A stretch of 64,000 nt of DNA from Acidobacteriota bacterium (lineage in GTDB: Bacteria > Acidobacteriota > Vicinamibacteria > Fen-336), in the NCBI GenBank assembly GCA_011526565.1, contig WYBL01000086.1, positions 22,219-86,218 of the forward strand, written 5' to 3'. The notes under the pieces are model-generated. The model did no database searches. It worked only from the letters and a program-made list of their open reading frames with translations, and was not told the DNA's origin. This document shows, piece by piece, positions 17,704 to 27,065 of this stretch (the stretch's first letter is position 1; every line of letters begins with the position of its first letter). A program made the translations under genes and the position numbers.

Positions 17704-20406
17704 ATGGCCTCCCCCCGCAGGACGGTGCACCTCGTCGACGGCAGCGCGCAGTTCCACCGCGCGTACTTCGCGATCCGCGGCCTCGCCACCAGCCGCGGCC
17801 TGCCGACCAACGCGACCTACGGCTTCACGACGATGCTCGAGAAGCTGATCGCCGACGAGCAGCCGAGCCACCTGGCGATCGTCTTCGACGCGCCCGGCCC
17901 CACCTTCCGCGACGAGATGTTCGCGGACTACAAGGCCAACCGGCCGAAGATGGACGACGAGCTGGCGGTCCAGTTTCCGTACGTGCGCAGGGTCTGCGAC
18001 GCCTTCGCCATCCCGGTGATCGAGGAGCCCGGGGTCGAGGCCGACGACGTGATCGCGACCCTCGCCCGCCACGCCGTGGCACAGGGCTTCCGCGTGGTCG
18101 TCGTCACCGCCGACAAGGACCTGCTGCAGCTCGTCGACGGCGACGTGCAGGTGCTGAACCCGGGGCGCGAGGGCTCGGGCGCCACGCTGTTCGACGCGGC
18201 GGCCGTCGAGGAGAAGTGGGGCGTGCGGCCGGAGCAGATCGCCGACGTGCTGGCGCTGATGGGCGACGCCGTCGACAACGTGCCCGGAGTGCCGGGCATC
18301 GGCGAAAAAGGCGCGCGCGACCTGATCCGCGAGCACGGCTCGCTGGAGGCGCTGCTGGAGCGCGCGGCGGAGGTCAAGCGCAAGGCCTATCGCGAGGGGC
18401 TGCTGGCCCACGCCGAAGACGCGCGGCTGTCGAAGCGGCTGGTCACGCTGCGCGCCGACGTGCCGGTGGCCTTCGAGCCCGACGCGCTGCGGGTGCGCCC
18501 GGTCGACAACGCGCTGGCGAGCGCCTTGTTCAAGGAGCTCGAGTTCGTCGCCCTCGCCCGCAAGTACGCCGCACCCGCGGCCGAACGCGCGCCGGTCGCC
18601 GTCGAGCTCGCGCGTGGGCCGCAGGACGTCGCCGCCGCGGTGAAGGCGGCCGCGAAGGCGGGTCGCTTCGCGCTGGCACTGGTGCCGACCGCTTCCCAGG
18701 CGATGCGCGCGAAGGTGATGGGCCTCGCGCTCGCCTCGTCGCCCGAGCGCGCGCTGTACGTGCCACTCGCCCACGCCGCGGCTCCCGCGAAAGGGCAGGG
18801 CGACCTGTTCGGCGCCCCGTCGAAAGAGGAGGGCGACGCGAAGGCGATGCTCGCGGCGCTGCGCCCGCTGTTCGGCGCCTCGTGCGAGTACGTCTCGGCC
18901 CAGGCCAAGCGCGACCGGGTGCTGCTCGGCCGGCTCGGCCTGGAGGACGCGGGCGCCTCGTTCGATGCGCTGGTGGCCGCGTTCCTGCTCAACCCCGGCC
19001 GCCGCGCGTATCCGCTCGAGGACCTCGAGCGCGAGGTGCTGGGCGAAGACCGCACGCCGGCCGCGCCGGGCGACGTCGCGGCGCTGACGCCCGAGGCCGC
19101 GGCCGCGCTGGCGGCGGAAGAGGCGGCGCTGGTGCTGCGCCTGGTCGAACCCGTGCGCGCGCGGCTCGCCGAAGAGGGGCTCGCGGAGATCCACGAGACG
19201 CTGGAGCTGGCGCTGATCCCGGCTCTCGCCGACATGGAGCGCGCGGGCGTCAAGATCGACAGCGCCCACCTCGCGGCGATGAGCCGGGAGATGGACGAGC
19301 AGCTCCAGGCGCTGGTCGCGCAGATCCACGAGGCGGCGGGCGGCGAGTTCAACGTCAACTCGCCGCCGCAACTGCGCGAGGTGCTGTTCGACAAGCTCGG
19401 CCTCAAGTCGGGCAAGAAGACCGCCAAGACCCGCGAGGCCAGCACCGCCGAAGACGTGCTCGAGGAGCTGGCCGACCAGCACCCGCTGCCGCGGCTGATC
19501 CTCGACTACCGGGCGATCCAGAAGCTGAAGGGCACCTACGTCGACGCGCTCCCGGCGATGGTCGACCCGGACACCGGGCGCATCCACACGACCTTCCACC
19601 AGACCGGCGCGGCGACCGGCCGGCTGTCGACCTCGGACCCGGGGCTGCAGAACATCCCGATCCGCACGGCGCTCGGCCGCCGCATCCGCCAGGCGTTCGT
19701 CGCCGAGCCAGGCCACCTGCTGGTCAGCGCGGACTACAGCCAGATCGAGCTGCGGGTACTGGCCCACCTGTCGCAGGACCCGATCCTGATCGACACCTTC
19801 CGTCGTGGCGAAGACGTCCACGACCGCACCGCGCGCGAGGTCTTCGGCGAGCTCTCGGGCGTGCCGAAGGACGAGCAGCGGCGGGTCGCGAAGATGGTCA
19901 ACTACGCGCTGCTCTACGGCAAGACCGCGTTCTCGCTGGCCAAGGACCTCGGCGTCCCGCGCAAGGAGGCGGAGGGCTTCATCGAGGCCTACTTCGCGCG
20001 CTACCCCAAGGTGCGCGGCTTCATCGACGACACGCTCGCGACCGCGCGCGAGACCGGCTGCGTGCGCACCCTGCTCGGCCGGCTGCGGCGCCTGCCCGAC
20101 ATCCGCTCGAAGAACTTCCCGGTGCGCGCCGAGGCCGAGCGCCAGGCGATGAACACGCCCGTGCAGGGCTCTGCGGCGGACCTGATCAAGAAGGCGATGA
20201 TCGACCTGCGGCTGCGGCTGCGGGCGGAGAAGCTGCGCACGCGGCTGATCCTGCAGATCCACGACGAGCTGCTGCTGGAGGCCCCCGAGCCGGAGGCCGA
20301 GCGCGCCCTGGCGCTGGTCAAGGACGTGATGGAGCACGCGCTCGCCCTCGACGTCCCGCTCGAGGTCGACGCCCGCATCGGCCGCACCTGGGACGAGGCG
20401 CACTGA
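17704..20406 (+). CDS. polA: DNA polymerase I
   Basis: 900 aa; 5'-3' exonuclease N-domain (VHLVDGSAQFHRAYFA...), Klenow-like polymerase motifs (RRxxKxxNFGxxYG, YSQIELR, QIHDELL). Confidence 0.97.
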   Translation: MASPRRTVHLVDGSAQFHRAYFAIRGLATSRGLPTNATYGFTTMLEKLIADEQPSHLAIVFDAPGPTFRDEMFADYKANRPKMDDELAVQFPYVRRVCDAFAIPVIEEPGVEADDVIATLARHAVAQGFRVVVVTADKDLLQLVDGDVQVLNPGREGSGATLFDAAAVEEKWGVRPEQIADVLALMGDAVDNVPGVPGIGEKGARDLIREHGSLEALLERAAEVKRKAYREGLLAHAEDARLSKRLVTLRADVPVAFEPDALRVRPVDNALASALFKELEFVALARKYAAPAAERAPVAVELARGPQDVAAAVKAAAKAGRFALALVPTASQAMRAKVMGLALASSPERALYVPLAHAAAPAKGQGDLFGAPSKEEGDAKAMLAALRPLFGASCEYVSAQAKRDRVLLGRLGLEDAGASFDALVAAFLLNPGRRAYPLEDLEREVLGEDRTPAAPGDVAALTPEAAAALAAEEAALVLRLVEPVRARLAEEGLAEIHETLELALIPALADMERAGVKIDSAHLAAMSREMDEQLQALVAQIHEAAGGEFNVNSPPQLREVLFDKLGLKSGKKTAKTREASTAEDVLEELADQHPLPRLILDYRAIQKLKGTYVDALPAMVDPDTGRIHTTFHQTGAATGRLSTSDPGLQNIPIRTALGRRIRQAFVAEPGHLLVSADYSQIELRVLAHLSQDPILIDTFRRGEDVHDRTAREVFGELSGVPKDEQRRVAKMVNYALLYGKTAFSLAKDLGVPRKEAEGFIEAYFARYPKVRGFIDDTLATARETGCVRTLLGRLRRLPDIRSKNFPVRAEAERQAMNTPVQGSAADLIKKAMIDLRLRLRAEKLRTRLILQIHDELLLEAPEPEAERALALVKDVMEHALALDVPLEVDARIGRTWDEAH

Positions 20407-20508: not shown

Positions 20509-20559
20509 AGCACTCTCCGGGGGAGAGTGCTTGACGGCGCCCGGCCCGCTGCCTACTCT
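20509..20559 (+). promoter_or_regulatory. Perfect 10-bp inverted repeat AGCACTCTCC-GGG-GGAGAGTGCT abutting a putative -35 TTGACG / 17 nt / -10 TACTCT promoter for the downstream zinc-ribbon gene
   Basis: Palindrome 20509-20531, TTGACG 20531-20536, TACTCT 20554-20559; gene start at 20582. Confidence 0.4.
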
Positions 20560-20581
20560 ATTCGTCCGGGGAGGTATTGCC

Positions 20582-20878
20582 GTGCCGCTCTACGAGTACC
20601 AGTGCCCGTCCTGTGGCACGTTCGAAGTGATCCAGAAGTTCTCCGACGCCGCGCTCACCCAGTGCCCGACGTGTCAGGGCGCCGTCGAAAAGCTGATCTC
20701 CGCCTCGGCCTTCCACCTGAAGGGCGCGGGCTGGTACATCACCGACTACGCCCGCAAGGGGAAGACCGGCGGCGAGTCGAAGTCCACGTCGGAGAGCAAG
20801 CCGGAGAGCAAGACCGAGTCGAAGCCCGATTCGTCGTCGACTTCCACCTCGACCCCCGCAGCCGCCACGACCGCCTAG
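20582..20878 (+). CDS. FmdB-family zinc-ribbon regulatory protein with Ser/Lys-rich tail
   Basis: [12 protein letters not shown]...CPTC signature; GTG start preceded by GGGGAGG. Confidence 0.75.
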
Positions 20879-22513: not shown

Positions 22514-22828
22514 ATGACGGCCGCCGAGGCGTGGACCGTCACCGGGCTGGGGATGGCGGTGACGTTCCTCGGCCTCGCGATCTGCATCGGCTTCATCCGG
22601 CTCTTCGGCGTGCTCGCGCGCCACGTCGGCGAGGCAGAGCCGCACGGCGCCGGGGCGCCGCCGGCTGCCGCGCCAGCCGTTGCCGCGCCGCCGCCTCCGC
22701 CACCCGCGGAGCCCGTGCCCGCGCCGGTGCTGGCGGTGATCGCCACCGTGCTCGACATCGAGCGCGCGCTCTACATGAACCGGCCCGGGTCCCGGGTCAC
22801 CATCCGGCGCACCGCGCCGCGGCCCTGA
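22514..22828 (+). CDS. OadG/MmdD-like small membrane subunit of Na+-translocating decarboxylase (Pro/Ala-rich tail)
   Basis: N-terminal TM helix MTAAEAWTVTGLGMAVTFLGLAICIGFIRLF, position between carboxyltransferase and BCCP. Confidence 0.55.
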   Translation: MTAAEAWTVTGLGMAVTFLGLAICIGFIRLFGVLARHVGEAEPHGAGAPPAAAPAVAAPPPPPPAEPVPAPVLAVIATVLDIERALYMNRPGSRVTIRRTAPRP

Positions 22829-22847
22829 GAGAGGCCGGGGGACGCCC

Positions 22848-23342
22848 ATGAGCCAGCACGTGCTTCGCATCGCCGGCCGCGAGTACCGCGCGGAGGTCAA
22901 GGACCTCTCGCCCGAGCGGGCGACCGTCGTCGTCGACGGCGTCGAGTACGCCGTCGACCTGGTCCAGCTCGGCCGCCGCGCGGTCGAGGCGGTGCGCCCG
23001 GTGGCCGCCGCCGTTCCGCCGCCGGCTGCCGCGCCCGCGGCCACCGCCCCGGCGCCTGCGGCGCCGCCTGCGCCTGCGGCCTCGCGCCCGGCCGCGGCGA
23101 CCCGCGGCGAAGGCGGCGTGGTCGCGCCGATGCCGGGTCTCGTGCTCAAGATCCACGTGCGCGAAGGCGACGCGGTGAGCGCCGGGCAGACGCTGCTGGT
23201 GATGGAGGCGATGAAGATGGAGAACGCGGTCGCCTCGGCCTACGCAGGCACGGTGGCCCGCGTGTACGTGCGCGAAGGCGACGCGATCGCCGAGGGCGAC
23301 CTGCTGGTCCAGGTCTCGCGCCCGCAGCTCACCACGCTCTGA
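22848..23342 (+). CDS. Biotin carboxyl carrier protein (biotinyl domain)
   Basis: C-terminal biotinylation motif EAMKMEN; Ala/Pro linker. Confidence 0.9.
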   Translation: MSQHVLRIAGREYRAEVKDLSPERATVVVDGVEYAVDLVQLGRRAVEAVRPVAAAVPPPAAAPAATAPAPAAPPAPAASRPAAATRGEGGVVAPMPGLVLKIHVREGDAVSAGQTLLVMEAMKMENAVASAYAGTVARVYVREGDAIAEGDLLVQVSRPQLTTL

Positions 23343-23351
23343 GGAGGCGCC

Positions 23352-25073
23352 GTGAAGGGTCTCGCGCTGCGCCTCGTGATCGTGCTCGCCGTGCTCGGGG
23401 TCGGCCTGGCCTCCGCCGACGACCGGCCCCGCTTCGGCGTGACCTTCGAGCCGGGCGCCGTCTACCTCCGCATCCACAAGGGCACCCGCGACGGCCTGCG
23501 CAACGACTACATGGGCCCGGCCGCCACCCGCGGCCTGGTGCGCGACGCGCAGGAGCGCGAGATCGGCACGTTCGTCACCGTGTACGCCGACGACTTCGAG
23601 GCGGTCGTGCGGGCCGAGTTCGCGCCGGGCCAGGGGCTCACGGCCGCCGACCACGTCGCGGTGCCGGAGCTGCAGCTCGCCTTCGTGCCGTTCCAGGTCG
23701 AGCCCGCCGGCGCCTACTTCCGGATCGACAAGGGCCGCGCCGAGCTCCCGGTGCTCAAGCGCGCGGCCAAGGGCCAGTTGTGGGACGCCCAGGGCCGCGT
23801 GGTCGCCATCTACACCGTGGTCACGGTCGCCGAGCACCAGAGCCTCGGCTACGTCACCCAGTTCGCGGCGGGCGCGTTCGCCCACGACGTGAAGGGCGGC
23901 CACGTGGCCGGCTACCTCGACCAGGTCGTGCAGGGCAGCGGCATCGCCAACCTGACCGCGGGCCACCTGGTGATGATCGCGATCGGCCTGCTGTTCATCT
24001 GGCTGGCGATCGCGAAGGACTACGAGCCGCTGCTGCTGGTGCCGATCGGCTTCGGCATCCTGGTCGGCAACGTGCCGCTGCCGCTGTCGATCTTCAACAG
24101 CGTCTCGCTGTACATGATCGACCCGGTGTCGCGCGAGTACGTGTTCAACCAGAGCGGCAACAGCGTGCTGGGGATCATCTACTACGGCGTGCGCGCGGGC
24201 GTGTTCCCGCCGCTCATCTTCCTCGGCATCGGCGCGCTGACCGACTTCCAGGCGCTCCTGTCCAACCCGCGCAGCCTGCTGCTGGGCGCCGCCGCCCAGA
24301 TCGGCATCTTCGCCACCTTCCTCGGCGCGCTGTGGCTCGGCTTCTCGCCGCAGAGCGCGGCCGCGATCGGCATCATCGGCGGCGCCGACGGCCCGACGGC
24401 CATCTTCACCGCGTCCCGCCTGGCCCCCGCCCTGATCGGCCCGATCGCGATCGCCGCCTACAGCTACATGGCGATGGTGCCGATCATCCAGCCGCCGATC
24501 ATGAAGCTCCTGACCACGCGCGAGGAGCGGCTGATCCGCATGAAGCCCGGGCGCAAGGTGTCGCGCTTCGAGAAGATCGCGTTCCCGGTGATGGGCCTGC
24601 TGGCCACGACGCTGCTGGCGCCGGGCGGCCTGCCGCTGCTCGGCATGCTGTTCTTCGGCAACCTGCTCAAGGAGTCGGGCGTCACCGGGCGGCTGGCCAA
24701 GACCGCGTCGTCGGCGCTGCTCGACTCGTGCACGATCCTGCTCGGCCTGGCGGTCGGCGCCTCGACCGCCGCGGACGTGTTCCTCACCCCGCAGTCGGTG
24801 ATGATCTTCGTGCTCGGCTGCCTGGCCTTCGCGTCGGCCACCGCCGGCGGCGTGCTGTTCGCCAAGCTGATGAACGTCTTCTCGGCCGACAAGGTGAACC
24901 CGCTGATCGGCGCCGCGGGCGTCTCGGCCGTGCCCGACTCCGCCCGCGTCGTGCACCAGGTGGGCCAGGCGGAGGACCCGGGCAACTACCTGCTCCAGCA
25001 CGCGATGGGACCCAACGTCGCGGGCGTGATCGGCTCGGCGCTGGCGGCCGGCGTGTTCCTCGGCCTGTTCTGA
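23352..25073 (+). CDS. Na+-translocating decarboxylase beta subunit (OadB/MmdB/GcdB) with about 185-aa N-terminal signal-peptide-bearing extension
   Basis: OadB-like sequence from about residue 185 (LTAGHLVMIAIGLLFIWLAIAKDYEPLLLVPIGFG...); GTG start with GAGGAGG RBS; extension has signal peptide MKGLALRLVIVLAVLGVGLASA. Confidence 0.88.
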   Translation: MKGLALRLVIVLAVLGVGLASADDRPRFGVTFEPGAVYLRIHKGTRDGLRNDYMGPAATRGLVRDAQEREIGTFVTVYADDFEAVVRAEFAPGQGLTAADHVAVPELQLAFVPFQVEPAGAYFRIDKGRAELPVLKRAAKGQLWDAQGRVVAIYTVVTVAEHQSLGYVTQFAAGAFAHDVKGGHVAGYLDQVVQGSGIANLTAGHLVMIAIGLLFIWLAIAKDYEPLLLVPIGFGILVGNVPLPLSIFNSVSLYMIDPVSREYVFNQSGNSVLGIIYYGVRAGVFPPLIFLGIGALTDFQALLSNPRSLLLGAAAQIGIFATFLGALWLGFSPQSAAAIGIIGGADGPTAIFTASRLAPALIGPIAIAAYSYMAMVPIIQPPIMKLLTTREERLIRMKPGRKVSRFEKIAFPVMGLLATTLLAPGGLPLLGMLFFGNLLKESGVTGRLAKTASSALLDSCTILLGLAVGASTAADVFLTPQSVMIFVLGCLAFASATAGGVLFAKLMNVFSADKVNPLIGAAGVSAVPDSARVVHQVGQAEDPGNYLLQHAMGPNVAGVIGSALAAGVFLGLF

Positions 25074-26087: not shown

Positions 26088-27065
26088 CTACTTCAGGCCA
26101 GCGTCACACGACTGGATCTCGAAGCTGTAGTTGCAGCTCACGGGGCCGGAGTTGCTCTGCACGACGATCCGCAAGCCAGCTCCGGCGGGGACCACGAACG
26201 AGAAGGGTCCGTCGAGACTCGACCCGATGTCCCCCAGATAGCCCGAGGACAGGTCGGCGGGGTTGAAGGCGCCCGAGTAGGCCAGCGCGTGGGCAGCGGT
26301 GCTGCAGTCTCCGTCGTCCCAGTTCACGGTGACGCAGGAGTCCGCGGCGCCGACGGGGCCCACGTTGTGAACCGTGTAGGTGTTCTCCGCGCCGGTGGTT
26401 CCCGGGAACGCCTTGCCCCCGCAGGTCGAAGGCACGCCGTCGCGGAACAGCCGGGTGACCATCGTCGGCCCGGTGGCGGAGAGCGAGCCGCTCACGATGC
26501 CGGCCGGACACGCGAGTTCCTCCTCGGGTGGACCGGGGTTGATCGCGTAGACCTTGCAGACCTCGCCGTCCGCCTGGCGGTCGGAGACGCACACCTTGGC
26601 GGACGACGGCACGAAGTACGTGTGGTCCGCGCGGCAAGTGCCCCGGAAGTCGACGATGCCGTCGTTGTCGAAGTCGAACGTGTAGCGGAGCTGGTCCCCC
26701 GGGTCGGGGTCGGTCGAGCGGCAGAGGTTGAAGCTCACCGTCAGCGGGAAGTAGCCGTTGATCTCGCCCAGTGCGTTGGCGGCCGGCCTGGTCTTGAACA
26801 CGCCGGTCGGCGCGGCGAGAGCGCCCACGCCCCCGGTCGGCGCGCCGGCCCCCACCGGGGTCGCGCCGATGTCGTTGGGGCTGCCCAGCGCGATCGCCGT
26901 CGTCGCCGCCGCCCCAGCCGTCCCGCCCTCGCCCGTCGCCGGCACTCCCGGCCGGTGCGACGGCCCGGAAGGGCTCGAACACGCCACGCACGACAGGGTC
27001 GCAAAGAACGCCACGATGCGCCCGAAACGTCTGTTCAGTCGCAGCATCACTGTCCTCCTGGACAA
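26088..27065 (-). CDS. Secreted/lipoprotein of unknown function (Cys-rich, Gly/Thr-rich N-terminal region)
   Basis: Signal peptide with LSCVACSS lipobox-like site; 325 aa; 10+ cysteines. Confidence 0.55.

Follow-up and report, generated by a model that had tools for sequence, protein, structure and literature searches.

The sodium pump operon and its beta subunit

The window analyzed here, a stretch of 64,000 nucleotides (nt) from the acidobacterial contig WYBL01000086.1, contains an operon for a predicted sodium-translocating biotin-dependent decarboxylase. The open reading frame (ORF) of its beta subunit (23352 to 25073, forward strand) starts with GTG and codes for 573 residues. Unlike OadB, MmdB, and GcdB, the encoded protein has ~185 extra residues at the N-terminus, with a signal peptide and two modeled beta-barrels ahead of the membrane domain (Table 1). 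As in the Oad, Mmd, and Gcd systems, the partners are a carboxyltransferase, an OadG-like subunit, and a biotin carboxyl carrier protein. The N-terminal extension is new, and it is a lineage-wide variant in the domain architecture of a known pump. An earlier note on this DNA, made from its letters, had described a soluble domain of unknown function fused to the pump and foreign to the characterized Oad, Mmd, and Gcd complexes, and both statements hold. No solved or characterized beta subunit of these complexes has an N-terminal exported domain, and no domain database models the module. The only solved beta subunit (6IVA/6IWW) is without it, and in the literature no description of a beta subunit with such a domain was found.

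Table 1. Features of the decarboxylase operon (positions in the window; aa, amino acids of the encoded protein)
Feature	Position	Strand	Remarks
Carboxyltransferase (alpha subunit), MmdA/PccB-like, 516 aa	20961..22511	+	Pfam Carboxyl_trans, E 1.1e-196
OadG/MmdD-like small subunit, 104 aa	22514..22828	+	Pfam OAD_gamma, 41.8 bits (cutoff 27)
Biotin carboxyl carrier protein, 164 aa	22848..23342	+	Pfam Biotin_lipoyl, E 8e-18; NF004173 and MmdC-like NCBIfam matches
Shine-Dalgarno sequence GAGGAGG	23341..23347	+	Read from the sequence; overlaps the preceding stop codon, 4 nt before GTG
Signal peptide (predicted), aa 1-22	23352..23417	+	MKGLALRLVIVLAVLGVGLASA, then DD; tripartite layout; modeled helix, residues 2-18
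Beta-barrel repeat 1 (modeled), aa 23-105	23418..23666	+	Strands 27-31, 37-41, 60-64, 70-79, 84-90, 101-104; GC at third codon positions 1.00
Beta-barrel repeat 2 (modeled), aa 106-187	23667..23912	+	Strands 109-117, 122-125, 140-144, 150-159, 164-171, 182-185
Short helix and linker, aa 188-203	23913..23960	+	Matches the very start of canonical OadB; modeled helix at 188-195
OAD_beta membrane domain, aa 204-573, and stop codon	23961..25073	+	PF03977, TIGR01109
Glutamate formimidoyltransferase (ftcD), 306 aa	25085..26005	+	TIGR02024, 259.7 bits (cutoff 221.25); 11 nt downstream

Start site and reading frame

The TGA stop codon of the carrier protein gene reads at 23340 to 23342, and an intergenic gap of 9 nt separates it from the beta-subunit ORF. 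The stretch TGAGGAGGCGCCGTG holds both the Shine-Dalgarno sequence and the GTG start codon. From that GTG through to the OAD_beta domain there is no stop codon in the frame. A phmmer search against all PDB sequences matches Salmonella OadB (6iva/6iww) and no other protein; residue 189 of the window protein pairs with its residue 4 (6iva), and the figure of ~185 extra N-terminal residues is therefore accurate. The early start, 185 codons upstream of the usual one, had been proposed on the spacing of the Shine-Dalgarno sequence and the open frame, and it is borne out.

The GC content at third codon positions (GC3) is 0.995–1.00 in each 90-nt segment of the extension from 23352 on, and that of the pump domain is identical; at codon positions 1 and 2 of the extension the values are 0.77 and 0.44. 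An antisense ORF of 734 residues spans 22797 to 25001. Long spurious ORFs are common in high-GC genomes, and this one is the usual artefact of that kind.

The pump domain

Behind the extension, residues 189–570 align end to end with OadB of Salmonella (380 bits; 6IVA/6IWW), the beta subunit of the oxaloacetate decarboxylase Na+ pump known also from Klebsiella and Vibrio. As in OadB, MmdB, and GcdB, both family models match above their cutoffs. PF03977 covers residues 205–572 (E 3.6e-150, 500.3 bits against a cutoff of 31.6, profile positions 2–348 of 349), and TIGR01109 covers residues 204–568 (491.3 bits against a cutoff of 190.6, profile positions 1–354 of 354). The tested functional residues are kept: the equivalents of Salmonella Glu40, Asp203, Tyr227, Tyr229, Asn373, Gly377, Ser382, Arg389, and Asn412 are all present and are invariant in 114 family members. 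Window residues D346, S525, and N555 correspond to Asp203, Ser382, and Asn412 of the Na+ sites, and Y370/Y372, N516, G520, and R532 to Tyr227/229, Asn373, Gly377, and Arg389 (for the residues forming the Na+ sites or essential for function in OadB, see PMC7274780). By its sequence, the pump part is a complete member of the OAD_beta family, intact and ordinary, and a predicted Na+ pump.

In enterobacterial OadB, a periplasmic helical domain E occupies residues 59–121, whereas in the window protein this region is shrunk to ~28 residues (24081 to 24164, residues ~244–271). The periplasmic decoration of the extension family is found at the N-terminus, in place of domain E.

The closest structural homolog of OadB is CitS, a 2-hydroxycarboxylate transporter, with which the pump part shares the scaffold/core elevator fold. 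Salmonella OadB has 10 transmembrane helices and two hairpins, and CitS has one more N-terminal helix (PMC7274780). As CitS and canonical OadB differ at the N-terminus, this end is a known point of variation of the fold. However, CitS adds one transmembrane helix and is dimeric, whereas the addition to the window protein is a soluble domain that is exported.

Membrane topology and the signal peptide

The orientation of the extension can be read from the first transmembrane helix, T1. In Salmonella OadB, Glu40 lies in the KKFEP loop directly after T1, on the cytoplasmic face, and T1 and T2 are at the outer trimer interface (PMC7274780). The same loop of the window protein is KDYEP, with E225 invariant in 114 homologs, and window residues 189–243 pair with residues 4–58 of Salmonella OadB. 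With the Glu40/E225 loop cytoplasmic, T1 starts in the periplasm and ends in the cytoplasm, and the whole part ahead of it would be periplasmic. On this comparison, we infer that the extension makes an existing periplasmic N-tail longer and leaves the membrane topology unchanged. The linker between T1 and the barrels is only ~10–15 residues, which would therefore place the barrels directly on the periplasmic face, near a subunit interface.

An N-tail of 165 residues would not cross the membrane unaided, and from what is established on the Sec-dependent translocation of N-tails, a signal peptide is expected. The need for help in export would thus account for the signal peptide found here. Its layout is MKGLALR-LVIVLAVLGVGL-ASA, then DD, in the order basic, hydrophobic, small, with K2 and R7 in the n-region, an uncharged h-region of 12 residues, and A-S-A at positions −3 to −1. 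By a manual rule (basic n-region, h-region of 7–15 hydrophobic residues, small residues at −3 and −1), the sequence has the features of a Sec signal peptide for signal peptidase I. There is neither a lipobox Cys nor a twin-arginine motif in the region. The features are kept over 113 homologs: the length has a median of 21 residues, there are one to three K or R among the first eight, the uncharged run has a median of 12 residues, and Ala is at the presumed −1 position in 91 of 113. Directly after the signal peptide comes a conserved (R/P)P-x-F-x-V-x-F strand. The N-terminus had been called cleavable-looking from the window alone, and the homologs agree with that view. Cleavage is predicted, probably after Ala22, with DDRPRFGVTF as the mature N-terminus. 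The mean identity to the window protein is 28% in the signal peptide, 56% in the mature extension, and 85% in the pump core.

A module of two predicted beta-barrels

With an alignment of 27 diverse family members, AlphaFold2 gives a model (predicted local distance difference test score, pLDDT, 90; predicted template-modeling score, pTM, 0.78) with two all-beta units of six strands each, at residues ~27–104 and ~109–185, and then a helix at 188–195. This run replaced one with only three sequences, which was unusable (pLDDT 37). After the signal peptide, the extension is thus modeled as an all-beta module of ~165 residues made of two six-stranded barrels. The two repeats are homologous to each other (hhalign probability 97%, E 9e-11, with profiles from 114 sequences; BLASTP E 5e-4). 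Conserved motifs of the family, YFRIDKGR and LKRAAKG, occur in repeat 2. Conserved polar positions of the module include D52, D65, D80, H101, E117, D126, K136, R137, K140, and D179; the module has no Cys and few His.

At the sequence level, the module stands apart. Neither Pfam nor NCBIfam matches residues 1–203, nor the extension of any of the 27 family members at E <= 10, and a profile search of the PDB sequences with the module returned nothing relevant. A six-frame hmmsearch of the window found no paralog of it. At the structural level, the top Foldseek matches are to the Vibrio LPHT flagellar ring and FlgT (8z5n, E 0.011; 3w1e), with MreC at E 0.03 (9a5z_B). Many B subunits of V/A-ATPases match with their N-terminal barrel of ~70 residues (probability 0.97–1.0, root-mean-square deviation ~3.6 Å), and C-terminal barrels of the GcvT/DMGDH, RimM, and alanine-racemase types are found as well. 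These fold matches are weak. In a review of periplasmic adaptors, the C-domain of FlgT, the N-terminal domain of F1-beta, and the adaptor beta-barrel domain are given one six-stranded barrel topology (PMC4446572). From the Foldseek matches and this equation of topologies, each repeat, as modeled, is best described as a barrel of the general FlgT/F1-beta/adaptor class and as a new family in sequence.

In the model, the repeats resemble the small closed six-stranded barrels of the FlgT C-domain (3W1E; 8Z5N), MreC, the F1/V1-ATPase crown, and the adaptor proteins. Oligomerization or docking in the periplasm is how FlgT, MreC, and the adaptor proteins work; the crown barrels of the ATPases are not periplasmic, yet they are an assembly element too. 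However, the Pfam, NCBIfam, and PDB profile searches detect no sequence relationship with any of these barrels. Unlike FlgT, MreC, and the adaptors, which are free or lipid-anchored proteins, the barrels here form one polypeptide with an ion pump of the elevator type.

In a lower-GC subfamily (P0150, P0153, and P0012, of 608–611 residues at full length), barrel 1 has an insertion of ~25 residues (…PPKSMPNGDALKDLFGKEVQFDYPKQPS…). P0150 is labeled Holophagales.

Distribution and conservation

Among GTDB species, each represented by one genome, a scan gave 14 loci that encode the extension (L003–L016). All are in metagenome-assembled genomes (MAGs) of Acidobacteriota (Vicinamibacteria, Thermoanaerobaculia, and Holophagales), except one in a “Lentimicrobium” bin. 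By tblastn, 13 of the 14 have one uninterrupted frame over residues ~1–573, from the extension through the pump, and the remaining one (L009) ends at a contig end. A frame fusion by sequencing error, which the earlier note had raised against itself, is thereby excluded. The locus L003, of a Vicinamibacteria MAG (JAMQGV010000024.1), is 98% identical in protein to the window, which places the window in Vicinamibacteria. Occurrence outside the Acidobacteriota was considered for the Lentimicrobium sp. locus (L014, JAAYWF010000283.1) and rejected: with 68% GC and a fused operon of the acidobacterial type, this contig was probably misbinned into a Bacteroidota MAG. Family members of low GC and rich in Lys belong to the subtype labeled Holophagales by NCBI. 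Every source that names an organism puts the variant in Acidobacteriota, and the variant is frequent in metagenomes.

A search with the full-length protein gives at least 113 clusters (at 90% identity) of 560–611 residues, with at least 94% query coverage. On the question of whether the extension is a known database variant, the answer is divided. Copies are many, but they bear only generic names (“sodium ion-translocating decarboxylase subunit beta” or similar), and for the extension there is neither a model nor a description.

An exhaustive comparison of a profile of the extension alone with 1.84 billion representative proteins finds the extension in 31 of them at E <= 1e-3. Nine of them extend past it (P0004, P0010, P0011, P0013, P0014, P0016, P0018, P0020, and P0021), and all nine continue into OAD_beta. 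One (P0025) has a short match with unrelated sequence on either side and looks chimeric; the others end within the extension or lose the frame there. Word-index searches with the extension undercount, as they return four proteins with a single sequence and five with the 27-sequence profile. No search route found an unfused relative. The candidate for a stand-alone extension gene, P0003 (L001), was rejected, for tblastn finds a single frameshift beyond which the frame joins OAD_beta, and the adjacent genes on the contig are split too. Three long-read contigs (L001 8001–9729, L002 7819–9470, and L021 7001–8726) have this gene and its neighbors in pieces, and such frameshifts explain the extension-only “hypothetical protein” entries P0003, P0004, and P0016.

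The ratio of nonsynonymous to synonymous substitution rates (dN/dS) is 0.29–0.53 in the extension and 0.07–0.17 in the core. Judged by these ratios, the extension is under purifying selection, with a looser constraint than that on the core.

The other genes of the operon

Unlike in the Oad complex, the alpha subunit here is an acyl-CoA carboxyltransferase (MmdA/PccB-like) and not of the OadA type. It matches TIGR01117 (mmdA) over its full length with 786 bits, below the cutoff of 998.8, and among PDB sequences the PccB structures score best (~700 bits, against 98 bits for GcdA). A substrate of the methylmalonyl/propionyl-CoA type, and not glutaconyl-CoA, is suggested by these scores. The linked ftcD had hinted at a glutaconyl-CoA decarboxylase; this identity was rejected, the alpha subunit being PccB/MmdA-like and not GcdA-like.

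The OadG-like subunit has the usual N-terminal transmembrane helix. Its Pro/Ala stretch (residues ~41–72) is an internal linker and not a tail, since a further C-terminal segment of ~30 residues (VLAVIATVLDIERALYMNRPGSRVTIRR) follows, which presumably binds the alpha subunit. In the Salmonella complex, the C-terminal part of gamma is cytoplasmic and binds the alpha subunit. The Pro/Ala stretch is an ordinary linker, cytoplasmic like this part, and is uninformative on the periplasmic face. The earlier note had joined it to the extension as two signs of a modified periplasmic face; the half that concerns the extension, periplasmic by the solved topology, stands, and the half that concerns OadG fails.

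The order mmdA-oadG-bccp-oadB-ftcD recurs in all nine related loci examined (L001, L002, L017–L023), including a lineage in which the extension is only ~31–35% identical to that of the window. The related loci carry the same fusion, and no separate gene for the extension was found. With ftcD as the last gene of the conserved cluster, an enzyme of histidine/folate catabolism is linked to a methylmalonyl-CoA-type Na+ pump. Among the loci examined, the cluster has no conserved gene for a periplasmic partner. In a Holophagaceae MAG (L019/L020 5310–6797), the cluster adjoins a Na+/alanine symporter, and in the divergent lineage (L022/L023 1–666) a Na+/H+ antiporter and a transhydrogenase adjoin it. 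Such neighbors of the Na+ cycle fit a role in sodium economy.

Upstream of the operon on the forward strand are a small Zn-ribbon protein (20531 to 20878, FmdB-type, PF09723) with a tail rich in Ser, Thr, and Lys, and a DNA polymerase I-like ORF (17704 to 20406), neither with an evident link to the extension. Downstream, on the reverse strand, is an ORF of 325 residues with a lipoprotein-like N-terminus (26088 to 27065).

A possible structural role for the module

We read the gene as a real beta-subunit variant of a Na+-translocating biotin decarboxylase of the methylmalonyl-CoA type, with the exported two-barrel module, more tentatively, as a structural cap or oligomerization element, and give this reading a probability of about 0.6. 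A functional-looking beta subunit is made with a signal peptide followed by two modeled barrels in tandem, an arrangement conserved under selection, and the barrels would be tethered to helix T1. Since T1 is part of the static scaffold, at the outer rim of the interface between beta subunits, the barrels would sit on the immobile part of the elevator, and the three copies of the module in a beta3gamma3 complex would thus put six barrels on the periplasmic face. There the module may cap or stabilize the trimer, or shape a vestibule at the Na+-exit/H+-entry side. With low confidence, we take it to be non-catalytic and to act as such a structural element. The structural neighbors (FlgT, MreC, and the adaptor and ATPase-crown barrels) are assembly or docking modules, which points to a structural role, as do the lack of a catalytic or ligand motif, the lack of a partner gene in the cluster, and the attachment to the immobile scaffold. 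Since the beta subunits of the canonical Mmd and Gcd pumps do without the module, the role would be accessory.

Several points weigh against this reading. Canonical Mmd and Gcd beta subunits function without the module and without domain E, so the fold has no need of a trimer-stabilizing element. No PDB match from Foldseek reaches E <= 1e-3, and TM-scores over the whole module are low (0.26–0.30), so that the fold assignment rests on single-barrel matches. Cleavage of the signal peptide is judged by a rule of thumb, and a dN/dS above that of the core is just as compatible with an accessory role under loose constraint.

An ordered version of the structural reading can be drawn, in which the six barrels form a periplasmic ring on beta3gamma3, like the six-barrel F1/V1-ATPase crown or the ring of six adaptor barrels above trimeric resistance-nodulation-division (RND) transporters. 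We hold such a ring to be rather improbable. If present, it could fix the scaffold domains to one another and enclose a vestibule that covers both the central cavity and the Na+ exit; the complex would then be the first elevator-type primary Na+ pump with a built-in periplasmic crown, and a possible docking platform for an envelope partner.

Alternative readings

The barrels could instead be a regulatory or partner-binding domain, which senses periplasmic Na+, pH, or a ligand and gates the elevator, or which tethers the pump to peptidoglycan or to an envelope protein. The module adjoins the Na+-exit/H+-entry face, it has the conserved polar positions listed above, and FlgT and MreC themselves act by periplasmic protein–protein contacts. 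However, it shows no recognizable motif for binding a ligand, a metal, or peptidoglycan, nor any Pfam match, Cys is absent and His scarce, and the cluster offers no conserved periplasmic partner. We consider this role unlikely.

The cleavable signal peptide has a competitor of its own: the N-terminus could remain uncleaved and add an eleventh helix to the membrane domain, its start inside as in CitS, with the barrels as a large periplasmic loop between it and T1. The extra N-terminal helix of CitS, the closest structural relative (PMC7274780), speaks for such an arrangement, as does the fact that cleavage is judged from sequence features; ~20% of the homologs are without Ala, Gly, or Ser at the assumed −1 position, which may just be a shifted site. 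But the uncharged core is short (12 residues, as is the median), −1 is Ala in most homologs, and the low identity of the segment (28%, against 85% for the true transmembrane domain) is typical of a discarded peptide and not of a packed helix. We hold an uncleaved helix to be improbable.

A cytoplasmic extension in contact with the alpha, carrier, or gamma subunits is very improbable, as the signal-peptide features are conserved, the next segment corresponds by homology to the N-terminal end of Salmonella OadB, which is periplasmic (T1 runs out to in), and the whole membrane domain would have to be inverted.

Finally, the view that oadB was joined to upstream sequence by a frameshift or misassembly, or that translation truly begins near codons 185–208 and leaves the upstream 555 nt untranslated, is effectively refuted: high-GC spurious ORFs such as the antisense one do exist, in-frame GTG codons occur at 185 and 193 with a GTG-ATG pair at 207–208, and certain database fragments (P0003) resemble separate genes, but the in-frame GC3 is 1.00, the mean amino acid identity of 56% comes with dN/dS < 1, 13 MAGs from different studies share one frame, the fold prediction is confident and driven by covariation, an internal start near codon 185 has no Shine-Dalgarno sequence (nor have the other internal GTGs) and most homologs have Ile at codon 185, and the seemingly separate fragments stem from frameshift-ridden long-read contigs in which the adjacent genes are split likewise.

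Implications

For annotation, the variant is hidden under a generic product name, and frameshifted long-read MAGs yield spurious stand-alone fragments of it. The module defines a domain family for which neither Pfam nor NCBIfam has a model, and it lends itself as a construct for structural studies of the pump's outward face. The Na+-translocating decarboxylases are regarded as having no real periplasmic part except domain E, which is variable and dispensable. A conserved exported module of 165 residues on a scaffold helix implies an unstudied function at the Na+-exit/H+-entry side, in stability, gating, or docking. The module is present in every relative of the pump that was found, in several classes of the Acidobacteriota, an abundant phylum of soils and sediments.

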